Assembly: GCA_964535505.1 (NCBI GenBank)
Contig: CAZHUH010000001.1
Coordinates: forward strand, 125,591 to 189,590
DNA length: 64,000 bases
Reading direction: 5' to 3'
Source: an uncultured Oscillospiraceae bacterium
GTDB lineage: Bacteria > Bacillota > Clostridia > Christensenellales > CAG-314
The notes beneath the pieces were generated by a model, which saw only the letters and a list, made by a program, of their open reading frames with translations, was not told the origin of the DNA and did no database searches. Each line of letters opens with the position of its first letter. The first letter of the stretch is position 1. Positions 7,268 through 58,248 of the stretch are shown here, one piece after another. The translations under genes were made by a program, and so were the position numbers.

Positions 7268-7289
7268 ACTATGTCTGAAATAATATTCT
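7268..7289 (+). repeat. REP-like intergenic element, copy 1 (short form)
   Basis: ACTATGTCTGAAATAATATTCT matches the family core ACTATGTCTGAAATAGTATTCTGC (motif written on the + strand). Confidence 0.75.
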
Positions 7290-7362
7290 ATGTTAATGCG
7301 ATTTATAGAGTAATTTGTTATATTTTTCAGTAATTATAGAGCAAATTGCGCATATAAAGCCG

Positions 7363-7384
7363 AAAAAAGACGCATTGCTGCGCC
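7363..7384 (-). terminator. Intrinsic terminator after spoVM
   Basis: Minus strand GGCGCA-GCAA-TGCGTC hairpin (6 bp, one G-U) followed by TTTTTT. Confidence 0.5.
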
Positions 7385-7431
7385 TTTTGTAAACTATTGG
7401 TAAATTGGTTCAAAATCTATTTTTTCCAAAA

Positions 7432-7521
7432 CTATTTGCTATCACCTTTTTTGCCCAAAAGAAACTTCAAAATTTTACCCAAAAAACCGGGCAGTTTGCA
7501 ACATACTATTTTACTTTTCAT
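7432..7521 (-). CDS. spoVM: Stage V sporulation protein M (29-aa amphipathic peptide)
   Basis: Too short for the ORF track. My translation is MKSKIVCCKLPGFLGKILKFLLGKKGDSK, compared with B. subtilis SpoVM MKFYTIKLPKFLGGIVRAMLGSFRKD (shared KLPxFLGxI...LG). SD GGAGAG lies 4 nt upstream. It sits directly downstream of rpe, as in B. subtilis. Confidence 0.8.
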   Translation of the reverse strand: MKSKIVCCKLPGFLGKILKFLLGKKGDSK

Positions 7522-7546
7522 GCAACTCTCCATTGTTTTTTGTAAA

Positions 7547-7575
7547 ATTATATGCCGTGTTTCGCCAAAAGGTTA
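7547..7575 (-). promoter_or_regulatory. Candidate sigma-E-type promoter for spoVM
   Basis: Minus strand -10 CATATAAT (consensus CATACAnT). 14-nt spacer. Weak -35 TAACCTT, overlapping the rpe stop. Confidence 0.35.
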
Positions 7576-8214
7576 CAAAGTTTTTAATTTTTGCACTGCG
7601 TCTTTTCTGTTGGGTGATTTTATTATATAACTGCCGGCAACCAGCACGTCCGCCCCTGCTTCAACCGCAAGTGCGCCCGTTTCGGCATTTATACCACCGT
7701 CCACTTCAATCAATTTATCGGCAAACAGTTTGCGTGCGGTTTTGATTTTTTTTAAACAACCGTGCATAAACTTTTGACCGCCAAAACCCGGCTCCACAGT
7801 CATAATCAAAATCATATCGAAAAACTCAACAAAAGGCAAAAGCGCTTCTACTGCCGTTGAAGGTTTTATGCACAGCCCCACTTTTGCGCCGCTTTGGCGA
7901 ATGCGCGCCGATGTTTCGGCAATGTCGCTGCCCGCTTCCAAATGAAAAGTTACAATGTTTGCCCCTGCGGCAATAAAATCGTCAACAACTTTGTGTGGGT
8001 TTTGTACCATCAAGTGTACATCCAACGGCAAAGAAACCGCCTTTTTAACTTGCGAAACCGCCTCAACGCTCAAAGCCGTGTTGGGAACAAACTTACCGTC
8101 CATAATATCGCAATGAATCCAATCAGCGCCACTGTTTTCCAACGACAAACATTCTTCATTCAGCCGTGAAAAATCCGCATTCAAAATTGACGGACTTACC
8201 AAAACTTTTTCCAT
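7573..8214 (-). CDS. rpe: Ribulose-phosphate 3-epimerase
   Basis: 213 aa, full-length match to the Rpe pattern (SILNADF...HCDIMDG...HLMV...MTVEPGFGGQ). Confidence 0.95.
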   Translation of the reverse strand: MEKVLVSPSILNADFSRLNEECLSLENSGADWIHCDIMDGKFVPNTALSVEAVSQVKKAVSLPLDVHLMVQNPHKVVDDFIAAGANIVTFHLEAGSDIAETSARIRQSGAKVGLCIKPSTAVEALLPFVEFFDMILIMTVEPGFGGQKFMHGCLKKIKTARKLFADKLIEVDGGINAETGALAVEAGADVLVAGSYIIKSPNRKDAVQKLKTL

Positions 8215-8250
8215 ATTTTCTCCCTTTTTTACGGCAATACTTGCCCTATT

Positions 8251-9123
8251 TTAATATTGGTTTTCTTCAAAATCCACCAATTCTTTGTATTCGTCCAAGT
8301 AGCGTTGATATCTTGCTTTGCACAATTTGCCCGTTTCCGCCGCTTTTTTTACTGCGCAATCTGGTTCCACCGTGTGTGTGCACGACGTAAATTTGCAGTT
8401 TTGTGCAATGGAAACAAAATCGTCCAAATAAAGCCTCAACTCGTCGTGGCGAATGCCCACCAAATTGCACAGCGAAAAGCCGCAGGTATCCACTACGTAG
8501 CCACCCCACACTTTGTGAAGCGAGCTATGCCGAGTGGTATGCATTCCCTTACCGGATTTTTCCGAAATGCCACCGGTTTTCCCCTGAAAATTAGGCAAGA
8601 TGGCGTTTAGAATGGAAGTTTTTCCAACGGCGGATTGACCTGCAAAACACACAATTTTGCCTTCAACATAGTTTTTCAAGCACTCCAAACTTGCGCTATC
8701 GAAAGCGGAAAGACAAACAATATCGCAAACAGAACTGAAATTCTGTCTAACTTCTTCTGCCGTACCGTCGTCGATATCCATTTTGTTCACAACAATAACA
8801 GGCTCGATTTTTTCTTGAAAACAGTTTATCAGCACCTTATCCGTAAGGTAAAAATCCGGTTGCGGCACACTTGCCAAAACAATAAAGCACACGTCCACAT
8901 TTGCCACTTCGGGGCGATTGAGACGGTTTTTGCGCGGTAAAATTTCCGTTATGTTGCCTTTGCCTTTGTGCAAATCCACAAATCGCACCATATCGCCCAC
9001 CAACACGTCAAATTCATTGTAGCGCAATTTTTTTGGAGAAAAACAAGTGAACTTGCCATTTTCCGATTCCACCGTGAAAACTCCACCGACGATTTTGGTT
9101 ACCACTCCATACAAGTCAGTCAT
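8251..9123 (-). CDS. rsgA: Ribosome small-subunit-dependent GTPase A
   Basis: OB-fold N-terminus, circularly permuted GTPase (VNKMD...GQSAVGKTS), C-terminal Zn knuckle (CKFTSCTHTVEPDCAV). Start moved to ATG 9123 (MTDLYG), which overlaps the rlmN end by 8 nt. Confidence 0.9.
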   Translation of the reverse strand: MTDLYGVVTKIVGGVFTVESENGKFTCFSPKKLRYNEFDVLVGDMVRFVDLHKGKGNITEILPRKNRLNRPEVANVDVCFIVLASVPQPDFYLTDKVLINCFQEKIEPVIVVNKMDIDDGTAEEVRQNFSSVCDIVCLSAFDSASLECLKNYVEGKIVCFAGQSAVGKTSILNAILPNFQGKTGGISEKSGKGMHTTRHSSLHKVWGGYVVDTCGFSLCNLVGIRHDELRLYLDDFVSIAQNCKFTSCTHTVEPDCAVKKAAETGKLCKARYQRYLDEYKELVDFEENQY

Positions 9124-10165
9124 GGTTGCCCTCCGAAAGATACCTTCTACGCAGTTGCCCACAAGCGCCTTCTATGTCTTGCCCCATAGTGCGACGGCGT
9201 GTTGCCGAAACGCCCAATCGTTCCAAATATTGCAAAAATTTCTTCAAATTTGCTTCGCTTGTGCCCTTCAAATTCGTTTCTTTCACAGGGTTAAGCGCAA
9301 TTATGTTTACGTGAACGGATATTCCGCGAAGCAACGCCGCCAATTTCAGCGCATGCGAATAACTGTCGTTTTGACCGTCGATAAGCGTGTATTCCACAAT
9401 CACGCGGCGGCCGGTTTTTTCAAAGTAGTATTTGCATGCGGAAACCGCTTCCTCCACACTGTATGCGTTGGTAATGGGCATTATTTGCTTGCGCTGTTCG
9501 GAATCAGGGTTGTGCAAACTTAACGTCAAGTTCACCGAAAACCCCATATCTGCCAATTCACGCATTTTTGGCACAACGCCGCAGGTAGAAAGGGAAATAT
9601 TTCGTTCAGAAATGTTTATGCCGTCTGCGGCAGTTACCAAACGTAAAAATTCAGTTACGTTTTCGAAGTTATCCAGCGGCTCGCCACTTCCCATCATAAC
9701 AACGTTAGTAACGTAGCGTTGCTTGCCGTCGCCCAGCGCATTTACGCTTAAAACTTCCCCCAAAATTTCGCCTGAGGAAAGGTTGCGTACCAACCCGCCC
9801 AGCGTGCTTGCGCAAAACTTGCACCCCATTCGACAACCGACTTGACTGGAAACGCACAGCGTGTTGCCGTATTTGTATTTCATTAAAACACCTTCCACCA
9901 CGTTGCCGTCGAAAAGTTCAAACAAAAACTTTTGTGTGCCGTCAATTTCGGACGTAAGCACGCGAATGATTTTTGCCGAAACAGCCACGCAAGTTTGCTT
10001 CAATTTTTGCCTAAAATCCTTTGATAGGTTGGTCATTGAATCGAAATCTGCGCCTTTTTGCAGCCACGAATAAAGTTGTTTGGCAACAAAGGGCTTAACA
10101 CCGAAGTTGCCCGTGATAAATTCCGTAAGTTTTTCCAAGGAAAAATCGTTAAGTATAGTTGCCAT
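9116..10165 (-). CDS. rlmN: 23S rRNA/tRNA (adenine-C2)-methyltransferase, radical SAM
   Basis: 349 aa with a CRMGCKFC radical-SAM motif and RlmN-type N-terminus. Confidence 0.92.
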   Translation of the reverse strand: MATILNDFSLEKLTEFITGNFGVKPFVAKQLYSWLQKGADFDSMTNLSKDFRQKLKQTCVAVSAKIIRVLTSEIDGTQKFLFELFDGNVVEGVLMKYKYGNTLCVSSQVGCRMGCKFCASTLGGLVRNLSSGEILGEVLSVNALGDGKQRYVTNVVMMGSGEPLDNFENVTEFLRLVTAADGINISERNISLSTCGVVPKMRELADMGFSVNLTLSLHNPDSEQRKQIMPITNAYSVEEAVSACKYYFEKTGRRVIVEYTLIDGQNDSYSHALKLAALLRGISVHVNIIALNPVKETNLKGTSEANLKKFLQYLERLGVSATRRRTMGQDIEGACGQLRRRYLSEGNHD

Positions 10166-10168
10166 AAA

Positions 10169-11431
10169 CTAACCCTTGCGTCTCAAAACCGCCAAATAAA
10201 AACCTTGCATTCCGTCCTTGTAAGGCAAAAACTGATATTGGCTTTTGCCGTGCGTTTGCGGAAGCTCATCTATCGAAATTGTTCCTTCTTCAAAATTGTC
10301 GTGTTCTTTTAAGAATTTGCGAACATTTTGACCATTTTCGTTGTCGAAAATCGTGCAAGTGGAATACACCAACGTGCCGCCCACCTTCACATAGTTGGCG
10401 CAATTGCACAAAATTGTATATTGCACCTTCATCAAATCGGAAATATCCTTGTTTTCGCGGAAAAGTTTTATGTCGGGTCTATTGTCCAACACACCGAAAC
10501 CGCTGCACGGCACATCGCACAGAACAGTGTCAAAGGCTTGTTCCCATTGGCTATTGTAAATTGTCATATCGGCGCAATGCGTTTCTGTTTCCGTCTGCAT
10601 ACGCGCCGCATAGGAATTTATCAAATCCACACGATGTTGATGAATATCGCATGCCACCACCTTTACGTCGGGGCGCAACTGTTTTACGTAAACAGCCTTG
10701 CCGCCCGGTGCCGAACAGCAATCCAAAACGCTGTTTTGTGCACAATTTGCCACAGCTTTTGAAATTGCCATAGAGGACAAACTTTGCACTGTAAAACTGT
10801 CGTCAGGCTTCAACCATTTGCCGAAAACTTTGAAAGCATCGGCAAAGCATGTAGGCTCGGCATTGCCGAATTTGTCTTTTGCAAGGCAAATATCGCCATT
10901 TTTAAGTCTAACTATGTTACAATTTGTATTTTTATAAGATACTATGTCTAACATAGTGCTCTTTCCGTAGTCTTTTATTAATTTTTTCACTGCCCACAAC
11001 GGATAGGAATAAATCACCGAAACTCGTTCCGATTCGTCGGTCGGAAAGTCGTCAAAACTCTTTATAGACTGCGCAATGTGTTTCAATGTGGCATTTACAA
11101 AGCCAACCGTTCGTATGTCCCCTGTTATTTTTGCCAACTCAGCAAAATCGTTTACAACTGCGTAAACCGGCAAGGAAAGTTCCATCAAACAGTAAATTCC
11201 CATTTTCAAAATGATAAGCGCTTCTTTCTTGGGCATTTTGTGCACATACTTGCTTAAAATATAGGTAAGTTTTATGTCGTTGTCCAACACGCCGTACACT
11301 ACTTTCGTTATCAGTGCCTTATCCTGCATTTTGCACGAGCTCAATGTTCTGTTCAAAGTTATGGAAGAAAAGGCTTGTTCTTGGTAAATGCTTTGCAGCG
11401 TGGAAAAACTTTTCAAAAAAGCCGTGTTCAT
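10169..11431 (-). CDS. rsmB: 16S rRNA (cytosine967-C5)-methyltransferase
   Basis: NusB-like N-domain plus SAM MTase (DCCSAPGGK, DVPCSG). Start moved to ATG 11431, an ATGA overlap with the fmt stop. Confidence 0.9.
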   Translation of the reverse strand: MNTAFLKSFSTLQSIYQEQAFSSITLNRTLSSCKMQDKALITKVVYGVLDNDIKLTYILSKYVHKMPKKEALIILKMGIYCLMELSLPVYAVVNDFAELAKITGDIRTVGFVNATLKHIAQSIKSFDDFPTDESERVSVIYSYPLWAVKKLIKDYGKSTMLDIVSYKNTNCNIVRLKNGDICLAKDKFGNAEPTCFADAFKVFGKWLKPDDSFTVQSLSSMAISKAVANCAQNSVLDCCSAPGGKAVYVKQLRPDVKVVACDIHQHRVDLINSYAARMQTETETHCADMTIYNSQWEQAFDTVLCDVPCSGFGVLDNRPDIKLFRENKDISDLMKVQYTILCNCANYVKVGGTLVYSTCTIFDNENGQNVRKFLKEHDNFEEGTISIDELPQTHGKSQYQFLPYKDGMQGFYLAVLRRKG

Positions 11432-12357
11432 TGCGCACCCAAAATTGTTCCTACGGGGATTTTTTTGCCGCAAAGAAAACTAACTATATCCATCTTTTTG
11501 GCATTTTCCATTTGCAACTGCTTTACCAAAACAGCCTTGCCATCGCCGCACAAAACGCACAAAGATTTTTTGCCGCATTCCACAACTTGCCCCGCCTTGC
11601 CGCCAAAAGTATTTTCCGAAATTCGCAAATCGAAAATTTTCAAATGTTTTCCGTCAAACTCCGTCCAGCCGCCCGTCATAGGGGAAAGTGCACGCACCAA
11701 ATTTACAATTTCATCCGCACTTTTTGTCCAATCGATTTTTTCTTGTTCGGCTGTAAGCTTTTTTGTGAACGTGGCTTTGGATTCGTCTTGTGGTATGTAC
11801 GTTGCCGTGCCGTTTTCTATTTGTTCTAATGCTTCTGAAATTGCCTCCGCACCCAACACGGAAAGCCGTTCAAAAAGTTCGCCGCAATTTTCGTAAGGCA
11901 AAATATCCAAAGACTTTTGCAAAATAATTTCTCCTGCGTCCACCGCTTTCACCGTGTTCAAAATGGTTATGCCTGTGGTTTTATATCCCTTCAAAACGGC
12001 ATATTGAATAGGTGCGGCACCTCTCAAATCGGGCAAAAGCGAGCCATGAATGTTCACTATGCCGTGTTTGGCAATGTCTATCACTTCCTGCGACAAAATT
12101 TGCCCATACGCCGCCGTTACCATAATGTCCGGTTCAAGTTGGCGCAGAGTGTCTACCCCGTCACGAGAAATTTTTTCAAACTGAAAAAGCGGAATGTTGT
12201 GTTGCAACGCAAATTTTTTGACGGCGCAAAACTCGACTTTGCCGCGTGTGCCCACCTTGTCGGGTTGACAAACGCATGCAACAAGTTGATGCTTTTGCAT
12301 TATCCGCTGCAAAGCACAAATGCCGAAATCGGGCGTTCCCAAAAAGACCACTTTCAT
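11428..12357 (-). CDS. fmt: Methionyl-tRNA formyltransferase
   Basis: 309 aa. MKVVFLGTPDF..., HGSLLPDLRGAAPIQ motif. Confidence 0.95.
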   Translation of the reverse strand: MKVVFLGTPDFGICALQRIMQKHQLVACVCQPDKVGTRGKVEFCAVKKFALQHNIPLFQFEKISRDGVDTLRQLEPDIMVTAAYGQILSQEVIDIAKHGIVNIHGSLLPDLRGAAPIQYAVLKGYKTTGITILNTVKAVDAGEIILQKSLDILPYENCGELFERLSVLGAEAISEALEQIENGTATYIPQDESKATFTKKLTAEQEKIDWTKSADEIVNLVRALSPMTGGWTEFDGKHLKIFDLRISENTFGGKAGQVVECGKKSLCVLCGDGKAVLVKQLQMENAKKMDIVSFLCGKKIPVGTILGAQ

Positions 12358-12367
12358 TTTTCACCTA

Positions 12368-12820
12368 TCAGTCCAAAATTTTCTTTGTCATTTTGTCGGG
12401 AAACAAAATTCCGTCCAAATGATCCATTTCGTGCAAAAACACGCGCGCAAAGTAGTCTTCGGCGTGCAGAGATTGCTTTTTGCCAAACCTATCGAAATAG
12501 GTTATATCTATTTTTTGAGGACGTTCAACCAAACCGCGGAAGCCCACAACCGATAGGCACCCTTCGTTGTCGATGCACTTGCCTTCGCTGTGTACCAAAA
12601 CGGGGTTTATCAGTTCGTAAAGTTTATCGTCGTATTCCACAATGCAAACGCGTTTTAGAATTCCAACTTGCGGCGCTGCCAAACCCAAACCTTCTTCGTA
12701 GTGCAATGTGTCGATCATGTCGTCCAACAACACATGCAACTTTTCGTCAAAAACATCAACAGGTTTGGAAATTTTTCTCAACAGCGGATCACCCATTTTT
12801 ACTATATTTCTTCTTGCCAT
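12368..12820 (-). CDS. def: Peptide deformylase
   Basis: 150 aa with the three Def motifs (GLAAPQVG, EGCLS, HEMDHL). Confidence 0.95.
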   Translation of the reverse strand: MARRNIVKMGDPLLRKISKPVDVFDEKLHVLLDDMIDTLHYEEGLGLAAPQVGILKRVCIVEYDDKLYELINPVLVHSEGKCIDNEGCLSVVGFRGLVERPQKIDITYFDRFGKKQSLHAEDYFARVFLHEMDHLDGILFPDKMTKKILD

Positions 12821-12903
12821 TGTTATTAAAACTCCTTAATACTTTATAAAAATGTCGAATTCTGTGTTCAAATATGCGCTTATTAACCAAACGCCGCACT
12901 CTT

Positions 12904-18147: not shown

Positions 18148-18482
18148 ATTCCTTTGCCGATCGAAACCAAGTTGGCTACGAAAATTTTTTCATCAAATTA
18201 TTTTAGCACAAAACAAATTATTTTTCAATAAATATAAAGCAAGTGTACTAAAATATTTTGTCAACAAGCATTTAAGCCGCCCGAAACAAACCAAATCAAT
18301 GTTGCGTGGTTCTTACATCTTATACACTACGTATCTTGTAAAAGTCTGTCAACTGACCGGCTCGTAGCACTGTGCGCAAACAAAACCGATTTCTTATTCG
18401 GCAGCAAAACAAGTTCTGCCACAACTTTCTGCTAAAATGCTTTTCTTGAGAAAAGCAAGCTTGCGTCTGCACTTCGCTCGCA

Positions 18483-18562
18483 ATTAAGCGCTAACGCTGG
18501 CAATTCAGTACTAAAATACGCAATAAAATGCTGAAATGCGGGATTAAGCGCTAACGCTCGCA
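18483..18562 (+). repeat. Two 20-nt direct repeats exactly 60 bp apart
   Basis: ATTAAGCGCTAACGCTGGCA at 18483-18502 and ATTAAGCGCTAACGCTCGCA at 18543-18562. They contain the palindrome AGCGCT. Confidence 0.7.
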
Positions 18563-18591
18563 CAGTACCACACTTTGACCTTCCAAATAAT

Positions 18592-18640
18592 ATTATGTCT
18601 GAAATAGTATTATCCGATAAGGAAAAACTCAATATACTTT
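18592..18640 (+). repeat. REP-like intergenic element, copy 2 (long form), abutting the ligA stop
   Basis: ATTATGTCTGAAATAGTATTATCCGATAAGGAAAAACTCAATATACTTT. Core plus the distal ATATACTTT box, which ends at the ligA stop codon. Confidence 0.75.
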
Positions 18641-24020: not shown

Positions 24021-24641
24021 TTAGACAACAAAATGACAAAGCAACCGTTCTTGCACGCAAGTTTCTGCCTTCCCCAATGTATTTTCTGATACTATGTCTA
24101 AAATAGTATTCAACAAAATGCTAGGGAACAAGAATACTATGTTAACTTTGGCATCGTAAACCACCGATTCTTCTTTAGCAATGCATTGCAATGCCCTACG
24201 CAGGGGCTTCAACAGCGAATAATCCACCACGACAAGCAGGCGTACGCAATCGGTCATACGCAGTTTTTCGCACCGCTTCAAAACTTCGGCGCAACTGTCG
24301 CTGTAAGCACGTATAAGCCCACCGGCGCCTAATTTTACGCCGCCAAAGTAGCGAGTTACCACAACGCACAATCTGTCAAGCCCGTTGTTTTTGATACATT
24401 CGAAAATGGGCATGCCTGCAGTGCCTTGCGGTTCTCCGTCATCGCTGAATTTTGCTTTGTCGCCTACGATATAGCCATAGCAACTGTGCGTGGCGTCAAA
24501 ATATTGCTTGCGCTTGGTGTTCACAAAATTCATTGCCTCTTCTACACTTTCGGTATGAATTGCGGAAGCAATAAACCGAGATTTTTCAATCACGATTTCG
24601 CAAACAACTTCTTTTGAATCTATCGTAGTATATTCTTTCAT
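24021..24641 (-). CDS. yigZ: YigZ/IMPACT-family protein
   Basis: 206 aa. EKSRFIA...ATHSCYGY...DDGEPQGTAG signature. The last ~30 codons run through a REP-like element. Confidence 0.8.
   Translation of the reverse strand: MKEYTTIDSKEVVCEIVIEKSRFIASAIHTESVEEAMNFVNTKRKQYFDATHSCYGYIVGDKAKFSDDGEPQGTAGMPIFECIKNNGLDRLCVVVTRYFGGVKLGAGGLIRAYSDSCAEVLKRCEKLRMTDCVRLLVVVDYSLLKPLRRALQCIAKEESVVYDAKVNIVFLFPSILLNTILDIVSENTLGKAETCVQERLLCHFVV
24089..24140 (+). repeat. REP-like element, copy 3, inside the yigZ 3' coding end
   Basis: ATACTATGTCTAAAATAGTATTC at 24089-24111, with an inverted partner GAATACTAT at 24132-24140. Confidence 0.7.
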
Positions 24642-28525: not shown

Positions 28526-28548
28526 ACTATGTCAGAAATAGTATACTG
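28526..28548 (+). repeat. REP-like intergenic element, copy 4 (short form)
   Basis: ACTATGTCAGAAATAGTATACTGC. Confidence 0.75.
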
Positions 28549-28590
28549 CGAAAGGCTCAATTTGTAGAGCAATTGCCCTATTTTGTCATT

Positions 28591-30061: not shown

Positions 30062-30166
30062 AATACAAGTTTACCATTTTTCCCAAACTATTGCAACGGT
30101 CTGGCAAAAGAATTATAAATATTATTTTATATATAAAAGTGCCAAAACGATTTTTCGCCTTAACTT

Positions 30167-30263
30167 CTTTCGGTTTTGCAATTCAATAGGTATTTCCCGA
30201 AAGAAATTTTTGCTTTTTCTTCTTTCGATTGAACAATTCATTGCTTTCGGTTTTGCAATTCAA
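30167..30263 (+). repeat. Perfect 20-nt direct repeat (plus one degenerate copy between) upstream of murG
   Basis: CTTTCGGTTTTGCAATTCAA at 30167-30186 and 30244-30263. Degenerate copy CTTTCGATTGAACAATTCA near 30221. Confidence 0.8.
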
Positions 30264-30298
30264 CCCATATTTTTAGCGCAACAAAATATACTATAAGT

Positions 30299-31406: not shown

Positions 31407-31430
31407 TCTATGTCTGAAATAATATTCTGC
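31407..31430 (+). repeat. REP-like intergenic element, copy 5 (between convergent murG and cvpA)
   Basis: TCTATGTCTGAAATAATATTCTGC. Confidence 0.75.
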
Positions 31431-31456
31431 ACTAACTAAAAAAATAGAATAATTTG

Positions 31457-34263: not shown

Positions 34264-34575
34264 CTAATTATCTCCTTTCCGAATAAATTCGGATACCCTA
34301 TTTAGCTCGTTAATATCTCGCAAAAATGCTTTTATTTTACCAACGCCTTGCTCAGTTATGCGATAGTATTTTCGCAACCTACCGTTATATTCCTTTGTGT
34401 GAGTAACAAGAAACCCACCGCTTTCCAGGCGCTTCAAAATGGGATAAAGCGTAGATTCGGATATATCTATATACGGCGAAATATCGCTTATAATTTTGTA
34501 TCCGTAAGATTCTTCCTTGCGAAGTGCCGCCAAAACAAACACTTCCAAGAAGCCTTTTTTTAATTGTGCATCCAC
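34264..34575 (-). CDS. PadR-family transcriptional regulator (short subfamily)
   Basis: 103 aa winged-helix pattern (LEVFVLAALRKEESYGYKI...STLYPILKRLESGGFL). Confidence 0.85.
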   Translation of the reverse strand: MDAQLKKGFLEVFVLAALRKEESYGYKIISDISPYIDISESTLYPILKRLESGGFLVTHTKEYNGRLRKYYRITEQGVGKIKAFLRDINELNRVSEFIRKGDN

Positions 34576-34650
34576 AAAAATTTCTCCCTTTAGGATTTTT
34601 AACTGAATATAGTGCCTTTAAATTTCGCGTTATACATCGTTATGCCTAAT

Positions 34651-34679
34651 ACTATACAATACATAGTATTGCTTGTCAA
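34651..34679 (-). promoter_or_regulatory. Sigma-A promoter of the padR operon with an embedded palindrome
   Basis: Minus strand TTGACA-17 nt-TATAGT. The spacer and -10 carry the palindrome AATACTAT-N7-ATAGTATT, a candidate autoregulatory operator. Confidence 0.65.
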
Positions 34680-34730
34680 GAGTTTTGTTAACAAATTTTC
34701 GCATTATTTTGCATTTTTTTCAAAAAGCGT

Positions 34731-35384: not shown

Positions 35385-35455
35385 AAATTATTTTTGGGTT
35401 CGACATTTTGGCTGTATAACGTTACCAAACTGCGGCAAAATTCATTTGCAAATGT

Positions 35456-35484
35456 ATTATACAATAAAACCGTGTGTATGTCAA
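35456..35484 (-). promoter_or_regulatory. Consensus sigma-A promoter for tRNA-Ala
   Basis: Minus strand TTGACA-17 nt-TATAAT, about 65 nt upstream of the mature tRNA 5' end. Confidence 0.7.
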
Positions 35485-35536
35485 AGCAAATTTCGGTTTT
35501 CTTTAATGATTTTTTTATTGCGTATATTTTATAATG

Positions 35537-38350: not shown

Positions 38351-38545
38351 TTCTTTGAATTAACCGTTAAAATTAGTCTGCTATATTAAATTGTTATTAG
38401 TTACTATGTCTGAAATAGTATTCTGCCCTAACAGGATTTTAGATATACTTTGACTGTCTTATGATATAAAAACATCACAAATAACCTTCTCGTCATTTTC
38501 ACACATCGTTGCCAATGCTGTTAGAAAGTACATCATTTTTTTGTT
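38351..38545 (+). repeat. Long direct repeat, left copy (REP-like long form, copy 6, plus relic of an SDR gene 3' end)
   Basis: 38351-38488 is ~85-90% identical by eye to 43211-43354 and includes the core ACTATGTCTGAAATAGTATTCTGC at 38403-38426. 38478-38545 is colinear (~60% by eye) with the last ~20 codons of the SDR gene at 43344. Confidence 0.75.
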
Positions 38546-43210: not shown

Positions 43211-43405
43211 GTTTAAGCGGTTTCTTTGAATTAAGCGTCAAAAATAGTCTGACATAAAATCGTTATTAGTTGCTATGTCTGAAATAGTATTCTGCAATAA
43301 CAGAATTTTGGATATACTTTGACGGTCTTGTGACATAAAAACATCACAAATAACTCTTTATCATCTCTTCACAACGCCTCCAAAGTGCGTCTGAAATGGC
43401 ACCAT
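43211..43405 (+). repeat. Long direct repeat, right copy (REP-like long form, copy 7, overlapping the intact SDR 3' end)
   Basis: Partner of 38351-38545. Core GCTATGTCTGAAATAGTATTCTGC at 43272-43295. Internal 10-nt direct repeat TGACATAAAA at ~43248 and ~43331. Confidence 0.75.
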
Positions 43406-44882: not shown

Positions 44883-44911
44883 ATATTACAATATTTTGAA
44901 ATTATTGTCAA
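44883..44911 (-). promoter_or_regulatory. Sigma-A promoter of the six-tRNA operon
   Basis: Minus strand TTGACA-17 nt-(TGt)TAATAT with an A/T-rich UP-like region upstream. Confidence 0.7.
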
Positions 44912-45217
44912 CAAATTTGTTAACTTTTTTCAAAAAAATTGTGCACTTTTTAGTGAGAGTACACCATATTTCGCTGCCATTCAATCCTTATTTATCTACT
45001 CGTTTAATTTTGCAACAGCTTACATTTCGGCAAACACAGTGTCAACGCTTTTGCAATCGTTATTTCCCGGATAAGATTCTCTGCACCACTCTTATATCAA
45101 AATTTCAATAAGCTATTTCGCACCACTAAACTTGCGGCAAACCACCTAACGTATTTGTAAGTTTTTCTCTTGAAAAAAACCATTTCTTGTGATAAAATAA
45201 ATTTTAAAGGAATATTT

Positions 45218-49408: not shown

Positions 49409-49417
49409 GGGAGCGTA

Positions 49418-50140: not shown

Positions 50141-50190
50141 AATTTGTAGGGCGGCATTTTACGACAAATTTTGCAAAATTCGAGTGTAGT

Positions 50191-50456: not shown

Positions 50457-50477
50457 AAAATTTGCTATATTTATGAT

Positions 50478-50525
50478 ATTATGTTAAAAATAGTATTCTG
50501 CGTTATTGAAAATCCCGATATACTT
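50478..50525 (+). repeat. REP-like intergenic element, copy 8 (long form), abutting the spoIVA stop
   Basis: ATTATGTTAAAAATAGTATTCTGCGTTATTGAAAATCCCGATATACTT. Confidence 0.7.
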
Positions 50526-51984
50526 ACAGCAACAAACAGATAAGTCCACCGCGATTTTCGTTTACAATTTTGCTAACTGTGCGGGTCAGCTTCTCTTTAA
50601 TTTCCGTAGGCATTGCGGTGCACTTTCCTTCAAGTCCTTCTTTCGCCAAGCCCGACATTGTTTTGCCAAACATGTTGGTATTCCAAATTGCCTGCGGATT
50701 TTGCTTGTACTCCGCCAAAACGTATTGGCTCTGCTGTTCTGTGCCTATCATAGGGCTAACTTCCGTTGCCACGTCAACACGAATAATGTGGTAGCTGGGT
50801 GCAGAGGCTTTCAGCCTTACTCCGTAAATGTTGCCCTGCCGCACCATTTCCGGTTCGTTAAGCGACATCTTCTCCATATCGGGCGACACAATGCCGTAGC
50901 CCAATTTGTCAGCTTGATCTAACGCGTCTTTCATTGTTTCAAAACAGCGGTTTGCTTTTGCCGATGCTGTTACAAAACTCATCAATGAAAACTCATCGGT
51001 TATTGGCATATTGGCTTCTTCCGACAACACATCGAAGAACAAATTTGCCTTGGGTGCCAGTTGGTAACAAGCAATTCCACAGCCCATTTGCAAACTTTCC
51101 ACCTTGCATTCTTCCAAAAAATCGCAATCGGCGAAACCTTCCGTTAATTTTTCGCAATCTTTCATTTTGTCAATGTCGGCGCAAACCTTTTTTACACGCT
51201 CGATTATTGATGAAATAACTTTGCTGTCCTTATCCAAAGCGCGCATCCAGTTGGGAATATTGATTGCCAAACGGCGCACGGGAAACTCTTTCAAAATATT
51301 TTGCAGCACTTCTTCAAGCTGCTTGGTATTTGCAGTTGCAACGTTCAATGGCATAACGCACACACCATACTTTTCGCGCAGTGCTTGGCAAAGGCTTTCG
51401 GTAGTTTCGGATGTGGGGTTTTTGCTGTTCACAACCACAACAAATGGTTTTCCAATGACTTTAAGTTCTCTTACTGTTTTTTCTTCGGCAGGAATGTAGT
51501 TTTGCCGAGGAATTTCCCCAACGGAGCCATCGTTGGTAACAACCACAACCACCGTGGAATGTTCCGCTGCCACCTTTTGCGTGCCGATTTCCGCTGCGCG
51601 CTCAAACGGCATTGGTTCGCCGGACCAAGGTGTGTTTACCAAACGCATTTTATCCCCTTCCAAGTGCCCCTCGGCGCCTTCGATCAAAAAACCAACACAG
51701 TCGATAAGTCGCACATTTGCAGTTGCCTTGTCCTCCAAAATCAGTTTTACCGCAGTGTTAGGCACAAATTTCGGTTGCGTGGTCATAATGGTTCTGCCGT
51801 CTGCCGATTGCGGCAATTCGTCTGTTGCGCGAGCACGTTCGTTCGGGTCGGCAATCTCCGGCAAAATCAACTTTTCCATAAAGTTTGTTACAAAAGTAGA
51901 TTTTCCGCTGCGAACGGGCCCCACCACGCCGATATATATATCTCCGTTTGTTCTTTCCGAAATATCCTGATAAATGTTGTTCAT
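50524..51984 (-). CDS. spoIVA: Stage IV sporulation protein A (spore coat morphogenetic ATPase)
   Basis: Walker A GPVRSGKST with the N-terminal pattern MNNIYQDISERTNGDIYIGVVGP. Start set to ATG 51984, since the listed TTG 51996 overlaps the GGAGG SD. Confidence 0.95.
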   Translation of the reverse strand: MNNIYQDISERTNGDIYIGVVGPVRSGKSTFVTNFMEKLILPEIADPNERARATDELPQSADGRTIMTTQPKFVPNTAVKLILEDKATANVRLIDCVGFLIEGAEGHLEGDKMRLVNTPWSGEPMPFERAAEIGTQKVAAEHSTVVVVVTNDGSVGEIPRQNYIPAEEKTVRELKVIGKPFVVVVNSKNPTSETTESLCQALREKYGVCVMPLNVATANTKQLEEVLQNILKEFPVRRLAINIPNWMRALDKDSKVISSIIERVKKVCADIDKMKDCEKLTEGFADCDFLEECKVESLQMGCGIACYQLAPKANLFFDVLSEEANMPITDEFSLMSFVTASAKANRCFETMKDALDQADKLGYGIVSPDMEKMSLNEPEMVRQGNIYGVRLKASAPSYHIIRVDVATEVSPMIGTEQQSQYVLAEYKQNPQAIWNTNMFGKTMSGLAKEGLEGKCTAMPTEIKEKLTRTVSKIVNENRGGLICLLL

Positions 51985-52011
51985 ACCTTCCTCCAAATAT
52001 GCGTTTGGTAG

Positions 52012-52040
52012 ATTGTATGAAAAATCCCCTTGCGATAGAA
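52012..52040 (-). promoter_or_regulatory. Candidate sigma-E-type promoter of spoIVA
   Basis: Minus strand -35 TTCTATC, 14-nt spacer, -10 CATACAAT (consensus CATACAnT), about 20 nt upstream of the SD. Confidence 0.45.
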
Positions 52041-52297
52041 CAAAGGGAAAAAGATTATCAGTGGAGAATAAACTTATATTGCCGAAAAAAGTAAAACCGT
52101 AAGTTTTGCGATGAATATTTGCGAACTGCTCCGATTTTCAGCACCCGTAACAAAAGGTTCGCACACCACAGCACACGTCAAACACTGCCGACTGTATGCG
52201 CATTCCAACCGCCGCCCGATAATATCAACTACCCAAAAACTTAACGGCCGTTTTGCAGCGAATATTTTGCGAACCAACTGTTTTCGGAACAATCACG

Positions 52298-53461: not shown

Positions 53462-53491
53462 TTTCTATCCCTTTTATCAGCATCCGCCGAG

Positions 53492-54163
53492 TCATCTTTC
53501 TTTTTTGCGACCCAACACCTGTTTACGAACTCCCGTACGCAATTCTTTGCCCCTAAAAATGCGCAAAATGTTGTGCCTGTGGGCAAACAGCACCACCGCA
53601 AGCATTGCCGTCAAAAATGCGCAACCCACAACGCCATCAACCGGCAAAAGCACAACCCAATGCCACACTATCATAAACACCGCAAACAAAATGGACATAA
53701 CCGACATTCTGTCGACGATAAAAATCACTGCAAGCATCGGCAAAACACAGCACAGCATAAGCAACGGATGAGTTATTGCGCACACTCCTATGCTTGTTGC
53801 CACACCTTTGCCTCCCCTAAACTTGTGATATGGCGGAAAAACGTGCCCCAACACCACAAACAGTCCTGCCCCATGCATAAAAGGCAACAGACAATTTGTG
53901 TATGCAAAGATAAACTTGCACAGCAAGCACACCAAAACACCTTTGAGAGAATCGCACAAAAAAGTCAGTGCGCCCAAGCCCAATCCGAAAACACGAAACA
54001 CGTTAGTGGTTCCGGCGTTGCCGCTTCCTACGGTGCGAATATCCTCGTGCTTTATTGCTTTACAAAACAAAATGGCAAAGTTAATTCCGCCAAAAGCGTA
54101 GCACGCCGCGGCAACCAAAACAAGTTGCCACCAATAAGTTAAAAAAAATGCTGTGCCGTCCAT
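53492..54163 (-). CDS. plsY: Glycerol-3-phosphate acyltransferase PlsY
   Basis: GSGNAGTTN motif in a multi-TM protein. Start moved to ATG 54163, next to the der stop. Confidence 0.93.
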   Translation of the reverse strand: MDGTAFFLTYWWQLVLVAAACYAFGGINFAILFCKAIKHEDIRTVGSGNAGTTNVFRVFGLGLGALTFLCDSLKGVLVCLLCKFIFAYTNCLLPFMHGAGLFVVLGHVFPPYHKFRGGKGVATSIGVCAITHPLLMLCCVLPMLAVIFIVDRMSVMSILFAVFMIVWHWVVLLPVDGVVGCAFLTAMLAVVLFAHRHNILRIFRGKELRTGVRKQVLGRKKER

Positions 54164-54164
54164 A

Positions 54165-55487
54165 TCAATCGTTATCCTTGTCACCACCGCGAAATACCAA
54201 GCGAATGGGCGTACCGTCTAGCGAAAATGCTCTTCTTATGTAATTTTCCAAATATCTACGATAAGAAAAATGTACCAAAGCCGCATCGTTGGTAAAAATC
54301 ACAAATGTCGGCGGTTGGGTGGAGGCTTGCGTTGCATATTTTATTTTGGCACGCTTGCCGTTTGCCGAAGGCGGTTCCACCGCTTGCACGGCATCGGTTA
54401 TAACATCGTTAAGCATACCGGTGGTAACACGAAAAGTGGATTTTGCATAAACGTATTTTACTTCGTCCATCAGTTTGTTCACACGCTGCCCGGTAAGTGC
54501 CGAAACAGTTATATAGCGGAAATAATCCATAAATGCCAAATCGCAAGACAACTCTTTTTTGAATTTTTCCACGGTGTGGGTGTCTTTTTCAATCAAATCC
54601 CACTTGTTTATCACCACAACCGAAGGCTTCCCTTCTTCATGAATAAACCCTGCAATTTTAACATCCTGTTCGGAAAGTCCCTCGTTGGCATCCATAACAA
54701 TCAAACACACATCGGCACGGCGAACGGCATTCAGCGAACGCATAACGCTGTATTGCTCTACAGTGTCATCGGTTATGGCGCGTTTGCGGCGCATGCCTGC
54801 GGTGTCGATTATGACGTACTTTCTCCCGTCGAAAGAAAAGGGCGTATCAATAGCGTCGCGCGTCGTCCCGGCAATATCCGAAACTATCGTGCGATCATAC
54901 CCCAAAATTTTGTTCACCAACGAAGATTTGCCTGCGTTGGGTTTTCCGACAACGGCAATTTTTATCACATCGTCATCTTCTTCGGCAAGGTTTTCTTCGG
55001 GGAAATGTTCCACAACGGCATCCAATAAATCGCCCACACCTTGTTTTTGTTCAGCAGCAATGGGATAAATGTCGCCCAGCCCCAACGAATAAAAGTCCGA
55101 AAGGTCGCTTTCGAGGTAGTTATCCACCTTGTTTACCACCATCACAATTGGCTTGTTACTTTTGCGAAGTAAAGTTGCAACATCGTAGTCTTCCGAAGTA
55201 AGCCCCGTTTTGTAATCGCAAAAGAACAAAATAACGTCGGCCAAATCGACGGCAATTTGCGCTTGTTGACGAATATGCTTAAACATCACGTCTTCACTTT
55301 TAAATTGAATTCCGCCGGTATCCACCAGCGTAAATTTTTTCCCTAACCATTCAGCATCGGCGTAAATTCTGTCGCGAGTAACCCCTGGCACATCCGAAAC
55401 TATGGAAATACGTCCACCGCAAACCTTATTGAAAAAAGTGGATTTTCCGACATTGGGCTTGCCGACAACGGCAACAAGCGGTTTCAT
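54165..55487 (-). CDS. der: Ribosome biogenesis GTPase Der (EngA)
   Basis: 440 aa. Tandem G domains (GKPNVGKST, GKPNAGKSS) plus a KH-like C-terminus. Confidence 0.97.
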   Translation of the reverse strand: MKPLVAVVGKPNVGKSTFFNKVCGGRISIVSDVPGVTRDRIYADAEWLGKKFTLVDTGGIQFKSEDVMFKHIRQQAQIAVDLADVILFFCDYKTGLTSEDYDVATLLRKSNKPIVMVVNKVDNYLESDLSDFYSLGLGDIYPIAAEQKQGVGDLLDAVVEHFPEENLAEEDDDVIKIAVVGKPNAGKSSLVNKILGYDRTIVSDIAGTTRDAIDTPFSFDGRKYVIIDTAGMRRKRAITDDTVEQYSVMRSLNAVRRADVCLIVMDANEGLSEQDVKIAGFIHEEGKPSVVVINKWDLIEKDTHTVEKFKKELSCDLAFMDYFRYITVSALTGQRVNKLMDEVKYVYAKSTFRVTTGMLNDVITDAVQAVEPPSANGKRAKIKYATQASTQPPTFVIFTNDAALVHFSYRRYLENYIRRAFSLDGTPIRLVFRGGDKDND

Positions 55488-55703
55488 AGTTTATCCTCCT
55501 AAAACAAAAATGTTTTTTCTTGCACAACTAAAGATTGAATAAGAAAAAGTAATGTAGTATAAAAACTGTTTGCTCTGCGCCGAAAGGATTTTTCTATGCC
55601 CAGCATCGTGCACTTGCGCAATTTTCGCAACTTTGCAATACATTTGTGCAACGTTTCGGAAATCTTCGCAACATCAACGGCATATTCTTCGGTAACGCAA
55701 AAA

Positions 55704-57005
55704 TCAGTCGTCGCAATTCAAAATCGCTTGACACATCTCGTAACCATCGGCAGTAACAACAACCTTTTTGCCCGTTTGGCGTATCAATTCGTCCAACGTC
55801 ATGCCGTCCAAAAACACGTTTTCTGTTTCACGCAACATAACGCGCGGCAACAACAATGTGTCGCCAACATCGGTGCGACCTTGCAGTGTGGAAACAATAT
55901 CTTGCCCCACCACCAAACCGGCAACAGTTACCGTTTCGCCGAAAAACTTGTTGTAAACGGTGATAACATTTGCTTGCAACTCGGGGAAAGCGCATTTTGC
56001 TTTTTCCAATGTTTCTTGCATAAGCGGTGTTGCCGAAACACCCGTTACAACTGAAAAACTGCCTTTTTTTGCGGAAGTCGCATCGGCAAAAGCTAAATTG
56101 AATTGATAACGAAAATCGGCAATCAAGCCAACGCCATTTTCCAACTGTTCAAAATCGCCGTAGTAGTCGTAATTGGGCACATCCTTTTGCGCGTAAAGAT
56201 ACATTTCGTCGGAACAATAAGCAAAATGATTACCGGTTGCCTCAAAGCACTTTTTGTCAAAAGCTTCCACAAAAGCCACCGTATCTTCCGCCACACTTTG
56301 CGTTACCGGCGAAAGGTTGCACAGTTCTTCGCGAAACTTGGTAAGCCCCACCGGCACCACGGCAACATTTTTTACCGCGGGGGAAAGAGTGAACAAATCG
56401 GTAAGCGTTTTTTCTAGTTGCTTGCCATCGTTCAACCCGGGGCACATCACCACTTGCGTATACATAGAAATGCCGTTATCCGCAAGATGTTGCAACAGCG
56501 GCATTATCGGGCGCGCACGCTTGTTGCCAAGCAATTTTCGACGCAGCTCGTCATCCGTTGCATGCACTGAAACATAAAGCGGCGAAAACTTTTTTGCAAC
56601 AATTCGCGCAATTTCCGCATCGCTAACGTTTGTGAGTGTAACAAAGTTGCCCGAAACAAACGAGAGCCGCCAGTCGTCGTCCTTCACGTACAACGTTTTG
56701 CGCTGCCCTTTGGGAAGTTGATCGACGAAACAAAACACACACTTATTGGCGCACCAACGCGGCTCGATGTAGCATTCGTCGAAAAAATCCCACCCCATAG
56801 GTTGTCCGCAATCTTTATGAACGTCAAAGGTAAGTTGCTCGCCGTTGCGCAACACAGTTACGGAAAAATCCGACTGCGAATCGAAATAGGCAACGTCCAA
56901 CATATCCTTTGCTTGTTCTCCGTTGAAAAGCACAATTTCATCTTGCTTTTTAAGCCCTATCTTTTCCGCAACGGAACGCTTATCCAATCCCGAAATTTTC
57001 AGCAT
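55704..57005 (-). CDS. DUF512 protein with N-terminal PDZ-like and radical-SAM-like regions
   Basis: 433 aa. CANKCVFC motif. Conserved position upstream of der in Clostridia (from memory). Confidence 0.8.
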   Translation of the reverse strand: MLKISGLDKRSVAEKIGLKKQDEIVLFNGEQAKDMLDVAYFDSQSDFSVTVLRNGEQLTFDVHKDCGQPMGWDFFDECYIEPRWCANKCVFCFVDQLPKGQRKTLYVKDDDWRLSFVSGNFVTLTNVSDAEIARIVAKKFSPLYVSVHATDDELRRKLLGNKRARPIMPLLQHLADNGISMYTQVVMCPGLNDGKQLEKTLTDLFTLSPAVKNVAVVPVGLTKFREELCNLSPVTQSVAEDTVAFVEAFDKKCFEATGNHFAYCSDEMYLYAQKDVPNYDYYGDFEQLENGVGLIADFRYQFNLAFADATSAKKGSFSVVTGVSATPLMQETLEKAKCAFPELQANVITVYNKFFGETVTVAGLVVGQDIVSTLQGRTDVGDTLLLPRVMLRETENVFLDGMTLDELIRQTGKKVVVTADGYEMCQAILNCDD

Positions 57006-57074
57006 GGTATCCTCACAAAAATGGCAACCGAAAAAACGATTGCCACCGACTTTGAAAAGTTTTAATCGAATTAC

Positions 57075-57923
57075 TTACTTTTTGTAAAACTGCGTTAAAT
57101 CCGTATTCAAAACAACGCTTTTGCCGTCAAGATACTTCAACGGACCTTGCTGAAAATGGAAAGTTATTTTTGTACAACACAAAAGTTGCGTTTTTGCGCG
57201 AAAACGACGATTAATCTTGTTGATACCGTACTTTCCGTCCCCCAAAATAGGCAGCTTCATAAAAGCCAAGTGTGCACGAATTTGGTGCGTGCGGCCTGTT
57301 ACAGGTTTAACTTCCAACAGCGAAAGTTCGCCCAAGTTTTTAAGCAATTTGTAGTGCGTTTCAATTGGCAAATAGCCTTGTTTTGGCACGGTGGAAATGT
57401 ACACCATGCTTTTTTTTGCGTCTTTGAACAAAAACGCTTTGAGTTTGGCAGATGCCGGTTTTGGTGTGCCCACCACAATGCAGTTGTAAAGTTTATCGAT
57501 ATCCCTATCCTTGAAAGAATTCAAAAGTTCCGTTTCTGCTGTATTGTTCAACGCAAAAACTACCAACCCCATGGTGTTCCTGTCCAAACGGTGCACGGGA
57601 ACGGCCGTTGCATCGGTAAGAATGTTGTTGATTCTTTCGGTCAGCGAATCGACGCCTTGAACTTCTATGCCGGGCATCTTGTTCACTACCAAAATGTTGT
57701 CATCGCGATAAACAACTTCAATGCTGTCCTTTTCGCGATCTGCCAAGTAAACGTAAACAACGTCCCCGGGGTTCACGTTCATATCCACGCCGACACGCAG
57801 TCCATTTACCTTTACGCTTTTGGATTTTATGATTTTTTGAATTCTGTAATACCCCAACTCAGTGTTGTCGCCGATGGCATCCGACAAGAGTTGACGACTT
57901 TTAACTTCTATTTCCTTTAACAT
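57075..57923 (-). CDS. RluA-family pseudouridine synthase with S4-like N-domain
   Basis: 282 aa. Catalytic HRLDRNTMG motif. Confidence 0.88.
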   Translation of the reverse strand: MLKEIEVKSRQLLSDAIGDNTELGYYRIQKIIKSKSVKVNGLRVGVDMNVNPGDVVYVYLADREKDSIEVVYRDDNILVVNKMPGIEVQGVDSLTERINNILTDATAVPVHRLDRNTMGLVVFALNNTAETELLNSFKDRDIDKLYNCIVVGTPKPASAKLKAFLFKDAKKSMVYISTVPKQGYLPIETHYKLLKNLGELSLLEVKPVTGRTHQIRAHLAFMKLPILGDGKYGINKINRRFRAKTQLLCCTKITFHFQQGPLKYLDGKSVVLNTDLTQFYKK

Positions 57924-58107
57924 ATTTTACATTATATCAAAATACATATAAAAAAGCAAATATTTAATGAGCAATTTTCCGTTGGCTTTTCTCGCCAAAA
58001 TACCCCTTTCCATAGACTTATCGAGCCAAATTGACATTAAACCATGCGTCACATTTCAGTCAGCGTCGTTGTACAAATTTCCGCCCCACCCCCAAAAGCC
58101 ATTTCAA

Positions 58108-58137
58108 GATGTCTGATATAGCCTCTAACATAGAATC
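58108..58137 (+). repeat. Degenerate REP-like fragment
   Basis: GATGTCTGATATAGCCTCTAACATAGAATC, a partial match to the core. Confidence 0.4.
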
Positions 58138-58226
58138 TCACCGAAAAAACAATAAAAAAGTGCAAAAAACACAAATAATTTCATGCTGTTTTCGCAGAAA
58201 AAAAAGTGTTTATTTGCGCCAAATAG

Positions 58227-58248
58227 AATATTATGCGTGTAATAGTAT
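58227..58248 (+). repeat. Degenerate REP-like element, copy 9
   Basis: ATATTATGCGTGTAATAGTATT keeps the ATTAT/ATAGTAT arms but has a diverged spacer. Confidence 0.45.

Follow-up and report, generated by a model that had tools for sequence, protein, structure and literature searches.

A strand-oriented palindromic repeat with the arms of a padR-promoter palindrome: possible polar protein-binding sites near the replication terminus of gut Clostridia

Repeat copies and their placement in the window

The window analysed here, a stretch of 64,000 nucleotides of contig CAZHUH010000001.1 from an uncultured Oscillospiraceae bacterium, contains a short palindromic repeat that is its largest direct-repeat family. 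The module of ∼50 bp returns at an average distance of ∼6 kb, in spacers next to ligA, rarA, cvpA, spoIVA and rluA among others and once within yigZ, and a padR regulator gene lies in the midst of the copies (Table 1). We scanned the window with the 24-mer ACTATGTCTGAAATAGTATTCTGC, allowing up to three mismatches and using shuffled sequences as control. Copies 1 to 7 of Table 1 were matched at their starts, while the shuffle expectation was 0.00, which bears out the initial annotation in its claim of a genuine repeat family in a single orientation. All matches are on the plus strand as written, so the sense of the element is the minus strand. Copy 8 has more mismatches to ACTATGTCTGAAATAGTATTCTGC and was found by a profile search (E=1e-11); the profile, built from the copies, also gives weak sites at 10933-10957 and 58226-58282. 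In total, the window holds eight good copies and one degenerate copy, all on the minus strand. The positions listed initially were recovered at the seven matching sites and at 50478, except that the copy put at 24089 actually starts at 24091. Among the two degenerate copies proposed, the one given at 58227 could be kept, its core part being 58228-58248 and orthologous to a good copy in the relative locus L013, while 58108 keeps only CTATATCAGACAT and is doubtful.

Most genes have the minus strand as their sense strand, and read on it the core is GCAGAATACTATTTCAGACATAGT. It is an imperfect palindrome, AGAATACTAT-TTCAGAC-ATAGTAT(TCT), with arms of 7-12 bp, half-sites TACT-N11-AGTA and a conserved, asymmetric 7-bp centre; the arms-only pattern ATACTAT-N7-ATAGTAT gave 16 matches versus 1.2 expected. 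In an ungapped alignment a second box (box A) lies at a constant 30 nt upstream of the inner ACTAT. Box A is AAGTATAT in the copies at 18592, 38403, 43272 and 50478, in agreement with the longer form previously described for four copies, and ACTATGTC-like in relatives, and every copy has some box at this distance. Since box A (ACTATGTCAGA-like) matches the initial 11 nt of the palindrome in its perfect form, it constitutes a partial, presumably weak, site 30 bp upstream of the core. The window copies share the subfamily traits GCAGAAT and AAGTATATC. Eight of the nine copies are in non-coding DNA, which makes up ∼18% of the window (P=7e-6), and their spacing is more even than random (coefficient of variation 0.40, P=0.006). 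Copies 6 and 7 belong to a ∼135-nt duplication (38351-38485 versus 43222-43354, 86-90% identical) with one element per duplicate; both duplicates carry the last codons of the SDR gene, and the copy at 38.4 kb is non-coding.

Table 1 Repeat copies and related features of the window
Feature	Position	Strand	Sequence and context
Copy 1	7268..7316	-	Core ATAGAATATTATTTCAGACATAGT and box A; past the rpe terminator, upstream of a pdaB/ylxY-like gene
Copy 2, long form	18592..18640	-	Box A AAGTATATT starts at the ligA stop codon
Copy 3	24091..24139	-	Within the 3' end of the yigZ coding sequence; encodes LNTILDIVS
Copy 4	28526..28574	-	rarA-ABC ATPase spacer
Copy 5	31407..31455	-	Past the cvpA terminator; 47 nt from the end of convergent murG
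Copy 6	38403..38451	-	Core is the exact consensus; in the ∼135-nt duplication common to copy 7
Copy 7	43272..43320	-	∼25 nt past the SDR stop codon
Copy 8	50478..50526	-	Box A overlaps the spoIVA stop codon; terminator 30 nt downstream; sigF convergent
Degenerate copy 9	58228..58282	-	AAATACTATTACACGCATAATAT and box A AATAATGTCAGAAAT; ylmC-rluA spacer
Doubtful relic	58108..58131	-	CTATATCAGACATC only
Near-perfect palindrome ACTATGTCTAACATAGT	10939..10959		Inside rsmB, without flanking boxes; membership uncertain
Palindrome AATACTAT-N7-ATAGTATT, presumed PadR operator	34647..34669		Over the spacer and -10 of the padR promoter
padR	34264..34575	-	103-aa PadR-s2 winged-helix regulator; first gene of padR-HAAS-DUF4097-cvpA; candidate binder

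The initial annotation had placed every copy 3' of a stop codon and the spoIVA copy in a 3' untranslated region (UTR). This applies to spoIVA, where the element indeed lies between the stop codon and the terminator hairpin, but the copy at 24091 is inside the yigZ frame, ∼70 nt before the stop, and those at 7268 and 31407 are outside a 3' UTR since a terminator precedes them. When the relatives are included, placement of the element ignores transcription units. It occurs before and after terminators, in spacers between convergent genes (31407, 50478, L008, L013) and between divergent genes (L001a, L006), within genes (yigZ and a HI0933-like gene in L001) and, on the pta side of two genomes (L024/L025), at a conserved position between two lagging-strand genes and antisense to both. 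For at least 6 of ∼20 sites (50478, 31407, 18592, L007, L008, L019), no coding target is reached before a terminator or a convergent gene. The genes rluA, yicC and lysR retain conserved canonical promoters of their own, TTGnnn-N17-TG-TATAAT, 60-350 nt downstream of the element, which supports the earlier view that the placement speaks against a simple promoter. A sigma-70 pattern scan revealed no enrichment of promoter-like sites (29 versus 22 in shuffles).

Conservation in relatives and selection on the nucleotides

When 185,579 species, each represented by one genome, were scanned for exact 20-mer matches, nine stretches were obtained. Six of these, all with flanking boxes, belong to uncultured gut Clostridia, namely metagenome-assembled genomes from rabbit, Hadza and chicken samples, including Ca. 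Fimimonas merdipullorum, and HAN104/105, while the remaining three (two Psychrobacter and one Bacteroidetes genome) look like chance. A 21-mer scan of JGI metagenomes gave 0 matches. A phage origin was rejected, as a scan of viral contigs produced only three matches without flanking boxes, which we took as chance. In 274 kb the minimal invariant pattern TAnTAT-N5-ACATA has 35 matches versus 1.3 in shuffles. Over 26 sites from ∼10 genomes the invariant bases are A-ATA-n-TAT, N5 and then ACATAGTA, and the information profile of these sites is ..A(A/C)TAT.TC.AAAAT.C..TTTTGTAGAATACTATTTCAGACATAGTAT...

Several copies are orthologous between species: those past spoIVA in the window, L013, L015 and L007, those past cvpA in the window, L013/L017 and L021, and the one in the ylmC-rluA spacer, which is degenerate in the window and good in L013. 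Compared with a relative whose YigZ is 92% identical, the cores are conserved and the surrounding spacers are full of indels. Other copies are gains specific to the lineage of the window. The ligA-yicC site (18592) is occupied in the close relative L021 and empty in L017-L020, and the rarA-ABC site (28526), likewise occupied in L021, is missing from L017-L020, whose spacers measure 0-52 nt.

The nucleotides of the element are themselves under selection, as the copy within yigZ (24021-24641) demonstrates. Nearly all of the 120 YigZ homologues listed are 204-210 aa long, and since their length is near-constant, the embedded element adds no residues. In six genomes with 66-100% protein identity every synonymous site of the codons AAT ACT ATT nnA GAC ATA GTA is identical, including the rare ATA and the four-fold degenerate ACT and GTA, while neighbouring codons vary freely. 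The residues T179, I180, D182 and I183 are invariant in 13 YigZ orthologues and coincide with invariant bases of the element. Their conservation may therefore be imposed by the embedded DNA site, and these four YigZ residues hold a lesson for annotation, as an embedded DNA signal can mimic protein conservation. A small plus-strand open reading frame (ORF; MSEIVFC...) was considered and rejected because the peptides have 9-28 aa and no ribosome-binding site, and third codon positions are equally conserved. In L001 a whole element including box A (7756-7794) is located in the middle of the HI0933-like flavoprotein gene without apparent extra length, and it is read there in the frame used by yigZ (SLNTISDIVS).

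The initial annotation had preferred descent from a common element or a structured RNA over a palindromic protein site; a structured RNA or REP-like hairpin is not supported by our folding tests. With Rfam 15 no match was obtained at the elements at gathering score or E≤5, only tRNAs and noise, so the earlier statement that no described RNA family is recognised still stands. For 20 copies from 10 genomes RNAalifold predicted no structure, with energy 0 and 0 pairs. When the 7-bp arm helix was counted explicitly, pairing and covariation were no better than in shuffles (103 to 219 of 500). The sole variable arm pair comprises 13 C-G, 2 U-G, 1 U-A and 4 mismatches, so that the search for compensatory changes proposed earlier yields one compensatory versus six uncompensated changes. 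Folded as single strands, the window copies reach free energies of -0.3 to -3.5 kcal/mol (z +0.8 to -1.7), and good folding is restricted to two copies of relatives with arms of 10-12 bp. Due to the missing covariation and the weak folding we consider the arms to be conserved as sequence and not as pairing partners. A long hairpin or switch, with box A pairing with the right arm, was likewise discarded, since the arms show no covariation and box A is, on inspection, merely degenerate.

Replication strand, terminus and likeness to PadR operators

In all 10 loci first examined the sense strand of the element is the G-rich (leading) strand. Along the longer loci each 5-kb block has positive skew, even where it contains lagging-strand genes. 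The position on the G-rich strand holds for ∼20 independent sites of ∼10 genomes, wherever the GC skew of the locus was measurable; the skew of L001 and L007 was not usable, and these two are outside this count. Exceptions to the strand rule are only the padR operators and the palindrome inside rsmB. The single orientation, initially described as matching the dominant gene direction, is confirmed, and the replication strand accounts for it at least as well.

The region syntenic to the window flanks the GC-skew terminus in two relatives. In HAN105 (JAFLVM010000001.1, 1.1 Mb) the skew is positive at 90-111 kb (pta) and negative at 230-252 kb (spoIVA), and contig k141_898498 exhibits the same switch between pta (0.7-21.7 kb) and yigZ (188-209 kb). 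Since the pta and spoIVA/yigZ loci have opposite skew, replication forks converge between them and the terminus lies there. On the same contig in both genomes, the sites on the two flanks of the terminus point in opposite directions. Three of the six true exact matches from the species-genome scan fall in terminus-flanking blocks, L004 between ylbM-like and ylbJ-like genes adjoining pta, L005 downstream of ffh-rimM adjoining rplS, and L007 past spoIVA (binomial P 0.002-0.016 if the blocks represent 5-10% of the genome).

The arms-only search also identified, with 0 mismatches, 34649-34669 (AATACTAT-ACAATAC-ATAGTATT). This palindrome overlies a canonical padR promoter, TTGACA-N17-TATAGT, is conserved in L013 and L015, and has the same 8-bp arms and the same 7-bp spacing as the repeat. 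PDB sequence matches to PadR proteins assign the window PadR to PadR-s2, and its AlphaFold2 (AF2) model (pLDDT 82.5) matches LmrR, cdPadR1 and others. The boxes of the PadR-s2 protein cdPadR1 from C. difficile, GTACTATACATTATAGAGTA and GTACTATGTATTATTATAGTA, were defined by electrophoretic mobility shift assay (EMSA) and correspond to TACT(N11-12)AGTA (PMC5050560). An inverted repeat of this type, TACT...AGTA with 11-12 bp in between and an AT-rich core, is present in all good copies as TACTAT-TTCAGAC-ATAGTA. The arms thus equal the padR-promoter palindrome and are of the PadR-s2 operator type, contrary to the initial annotation, which had disfavoured a palindromic protein site. Judged from its sequence, the repeat is most simply read as the binding site of the window PadR or of a protein with the same specificity, and PadR or a paralogue would bind the copies.

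Like the PadR-s2 operators (cdPadR1 boxes, LmrR/LltR-type autoregulation) the element has a TACT-N11-AGTA inverted repeat with an AT-rich centre; a PadR-s2 gene lies within the repeat cluster, and the arms are identical to the palindrome at its own promoter. Unlike these operators, it is many-copied, has a conserved asymmetric centre TTCAGAC, a one-sided TTTTG-TAGAAT extension and an auxiliary half-site 30 bp off, is uniformly oriented to the strand and is mostly outside promoters. A presumed operator over a promoter is found at padR, while for most repeat copies no working promoter is recognisable, and known regulators of the PadR-HAAS type control mainly their own operon, unlike a repeat with many sites. 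The element is of the operator-palindrome type; its copy number, polarity and location are unusual. Other known sites were compared by their consensus: none of the CodY, Spo0A, ArgR, ScoC, LexA, Fur, NrdR and parS motifs, nor of the dif/XerCD, ComX, SigE, SigK, SigG and SigH consensuses, fits in both sequence and spacing. A search of the window for dif-like sites found nothing.

Polar protein-DNA sites and competing explanations

We tentatively favour a reading of the repeat, drawn from sequence comparisons, as a set of polar protein-DNA sites, either Ter/RTP-like or marking the terminus domain. In this scheme the repeat would act as double-stranded DNA and dock a winged-helix dimer with the PadR-s2/RTP fold. 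Each unit would consist of the imperfect palindrome as strong site and the partial copy in box A as weak site, and a replication fork would always meet box A first and the palindrome second. The units would lie within ∼100-170 kb of the GC-skew terminus and be reversed on the other side. Their complexes would then act as barriers of one polarity, letting forks and co-directional traffic towards the terminus pass and hindering movement in the opposite direction. We prefer this reading because of the weak-then-strong layout in fork direction, the related palindrome by which padR presumably autoregulates, and the literature on RTP/Ter. Among proteins not belonging to the PadR family, RTP and BlaI are structurally the closest homologues of PadR-s2 (PMC3506622). 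In B. subtilis a Ter site combines a weak A with a strong B site; a fork arriving from the A side passes, one arriving from the B side is stopped, and rtp regulates itself through a Ter site (PMC10331603).

The element shares with the B. subtilis Ter/RTP system a putatively polar two-part site, presumably weak plus strong, near the terminus and in the orientation that would let origin-derived forks pass, a reversal of this orientation across the terminus, a related site at the gene of the candidate binder, and the likeness of the RTP fold to PadR-s2. As expected for Ter, the element is on the G-rich strand at all measurable loci and in opposite directions across the skew switch. The half-site register of the element differs from that of Ter by ∼3 bp, and we presume a partial sequence likeness to B. 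subtilis Ter, CTATGT...AAAT. With MatP/matS and XerD/XDS it has in common tens of palindromic protein sites around the terminus, in genes or spacers; those sites, however, are not known to have a strand orientation and are unrelated to the element in sequence and in binding protein.

Several observations weigh against polar sites. Nine sites in 64 kb are ∼10x denser than in known Ter systems, and box A and the palindrome are 30 bp apart start to start, not abutting like Ter A and B. No RTP homologue was found by sequence: RTP (1BM9) retrieves no PadR protein, and its comparison with the window PadR gives only a local match of 24 residues with a weak pairwise E=0.008. Many sites are in 3' regions that are transcribed, and passing RNA polymerase would displace a protein bound there. 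The strand bias is confounded by gene orientation, as 19 of 19 sites have P ∼0.05 if 85% of genes are assumed to be leading, and the orientation of the antisense case depends on the 7-bp centre alone because this copy is nearly symmetric. The relatives' loci were gathered around SpoIVA, YigZ and Pta orthologues, the unbiased sampling is all syntenic with the window, and the terminus clustering draws on the positions of L004, L005 and L007 among six exact matches, the others being L001, L006 and L008. With HAAS and DUF4097 next to it, padR has the context of a local envelope-stress module, and its Listeria counterpart LltR controls mainly its own operon (PMC6624303). Finally, one side of the element, a T-tract followed by G and TAGAAT, has the extended -10 layout of authentic promoters in this clade, a resemblance that keeps a promoter function alive.

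To our knowledge, fork traps exist only as Tus/Ter in Enterobacteria and relatives and as RTP/Ter in the Bacillus subtilis group. Their origin and purpose are still debated. It is rather doubtful, though conceivable, that the gut Clostridia around Ca. Fimimonas have a fork trap or a polar terminus-domain system with tens of oriented sites bound by a PadR-s2-type protein. If so, it would be a third bacterial type of fork trap, either independent of the Bacillus RTP/Ter system or its ancestral counterpart, and would connect RTP to the structurally similar PadR repressors, which would become a plausible evolutionary source of RTP. Dense, oriented sites of the PadR type flanking the terminus would make origin and purpose of fork traps testable in a new phylum-level context. 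A search of the literature available to us for a link between PadR-type proteins and fork traps in Clostridia found none, and the element matches no RNA or repeat family.

It is also possible, at a rather low probability, that the copies are promoter cassettes under PadR control, i.e. extended -10 promoters lacking a -35, with a PadR-type operator lying over the -10 and the start site. They would form a large stress regulon, or serve as additional upstream or antisense promoters that are freed when PadR leaves the DNA. The one-sided TTTTG(N0-2)TAGAAT resembles the -10 region of the tRNA, rluA, yicC, lysR and padR promoters, TAnTAT is invariant, and the palindrome is placed to block RNA polymerase, as at the padR promoter and as argued for cdPadR1 (PMC5050560). 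Some copies are 30-120 nt upstream of a co-oriented gene (28526 before the ABC ATPase, L001a, L006, L016), and in L018-L020 the copy within yigZ is at this distance from a flavin reductase gene. Most copies in the relatives carry an extended -10-like box. However, the element lacks a -35, A-11 of the box is unconserved in the yigZ copies, and at least 6 of the ∼20 sites meet a terminator or a convergent gene before a coding target. In comparison with the extended -10 sigma-A promoters of Firmicutes, the one-sided T-tract-G-TAnAAT is alike, as in the tRNA, rluA, yicC and lysR promoters here, but the element often has no downstream gene, and its strongest conservation is palindromic and downstream of the box. 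Moreover, rluA, yicC and lysR own canonical promoters, and the sequence from the element to the next feature is unconserved even in the 92%-identical relative, hence no conserved transcript would result. Promoter cassettes also leave the terminus clustering unexplained, no copies are oriented with the ∼20 lagging-strand genes, and homologous PadR-HAAS systems have small regulons (PMC6624303). If the cassette explanation applies nevertheless, the case would remain unusual, with a transcription-factor site that has spread to one copy per operon and whose nucleotides are held by selection even within a coding sequence. As a separate observation, the promoters of the tRNA cluster (44900-44935), tRNA-Ala (35455-35490), yicC (18200-18228) and padR (34650-34690) share a TTGACA-like -35, with a T-tract and G directly before the -10.

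An unlikely origin of the family is a selfish or domesticated repeat similar to repetitive extragenic palindromes (REPs) or miniature inverted-repeat transposable elements (MITEs), spread by a single-strand transposase (HUH/Y1, REP-associated tyrosine transposase (RAYT) or IS200/IS605-type), with the strand bias arising from transposition of single-stranded DNA on the lagging-strand template. IS608-type elements have a strand bias, which the element resembles. In line with a mobile origin, the rarA-ABC and ligA-yicC spacers are 0-127 nt where empty (L017-L020) and 156-490 nt where occupied (window, L021), the window copies have their subfamily traits in common, each half of the 135-nt duplication carries one element, and some copies have perfect arms of 10-12 bp around a conserved, asymmetric loop. 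The element resembles the REPs and bacterial interspersed mosaic elements (BIMEs) of Enterobacteria and Pseudomonas, which are associated with RAYT, in being a short imperfect palindrome with many copies and a lineage-specific consensus, extragenic and often post-gene or between convergent genes. But it is AT-rich with weak hairpins, unstable in most copies, and has no conserved GTAG/CTAC; neither a RAYT nor another transposase was seen among the annotated genes of ∼10 loci (∼200 kb) or among the window ORFs tested. Neither target-site duplications nor clean boundaries were seen, occupied and empty spacers differ by many unrelated indels, and box A is a degenerate arm opposite a conserved right arm, unlike the terminal inverted repeats of MITEs. 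Against mobility also speak the yigZ copy, which adds no residues and is under synonymous-site selection, and the persistence of orthologous copies between species with 74-84% identical SpoIVA, in which the flanks are scrambled.

Decidedly improbable is a family of promoters for an alternative sigma factor that works without repressor, such as the forespore SigF-like GTATA-N15-nnnnAGAATA. The organism sporulates, with sigF, spoIVA and ylmC in the window, and the four long-form copies fit GTATA-N15-(GG)nnAnAATA with boxes at fixed spacing, when compared with the known SigF consensus. However, conservation is strongest past the putative -10 and is palindromic there, the genes that follow are mostly housekeeping genes or are lacking, and box A is weakly conserved, being ACTATGTC-like and not GTATA in relatives. 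We give hardly any credence to a 3'-UTR or other RNA element (protein-binding hairpin, processing site or stabiliser) co-transcribed with the upstream gene: 7 of ∼19 sites begin ≤30 nt from the upstream stop codon, the orientation is usually that of the upstream gene and the spoIVA element precedes its terminator, but the Rfam, folding and covariation results and the copies past terminators, in divergent spacers or antisense to both neighbours contradict it.

Some further features of the window were recorded. Strong Shine-Dalgarno-like purine runs on the minus strand (7225-7262, 18555-18585, 24040-24075, 58060-58100), followed by TTG/GTG and very short ORFs of 6-36 codons, occur 10-25 nt downstream of four cores. 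The ligA-yicC spacer (18470-18560, minus strand) contains two copies of a GCGAGCGTTAGCGCTTAAT-like 19-mer that is absent from the close relative L021. In the divergent rarA/murG spacer, a 36-nt direct repeat (30160-30195 and 30237-30272) is 81% identical between its units, which are 77 nt apart. A 991-aa FtsK/SpoIIIE translocase (1567-4542) is encoded at the terminus-facing end of the window, and a Schlafen-like protein with a helicase domain (62982-63890) at the opposite end. A lone tRNA-Cys (62497-62570, plus strand) is on the lagging strand and overlaps a minus-strand ORF call.

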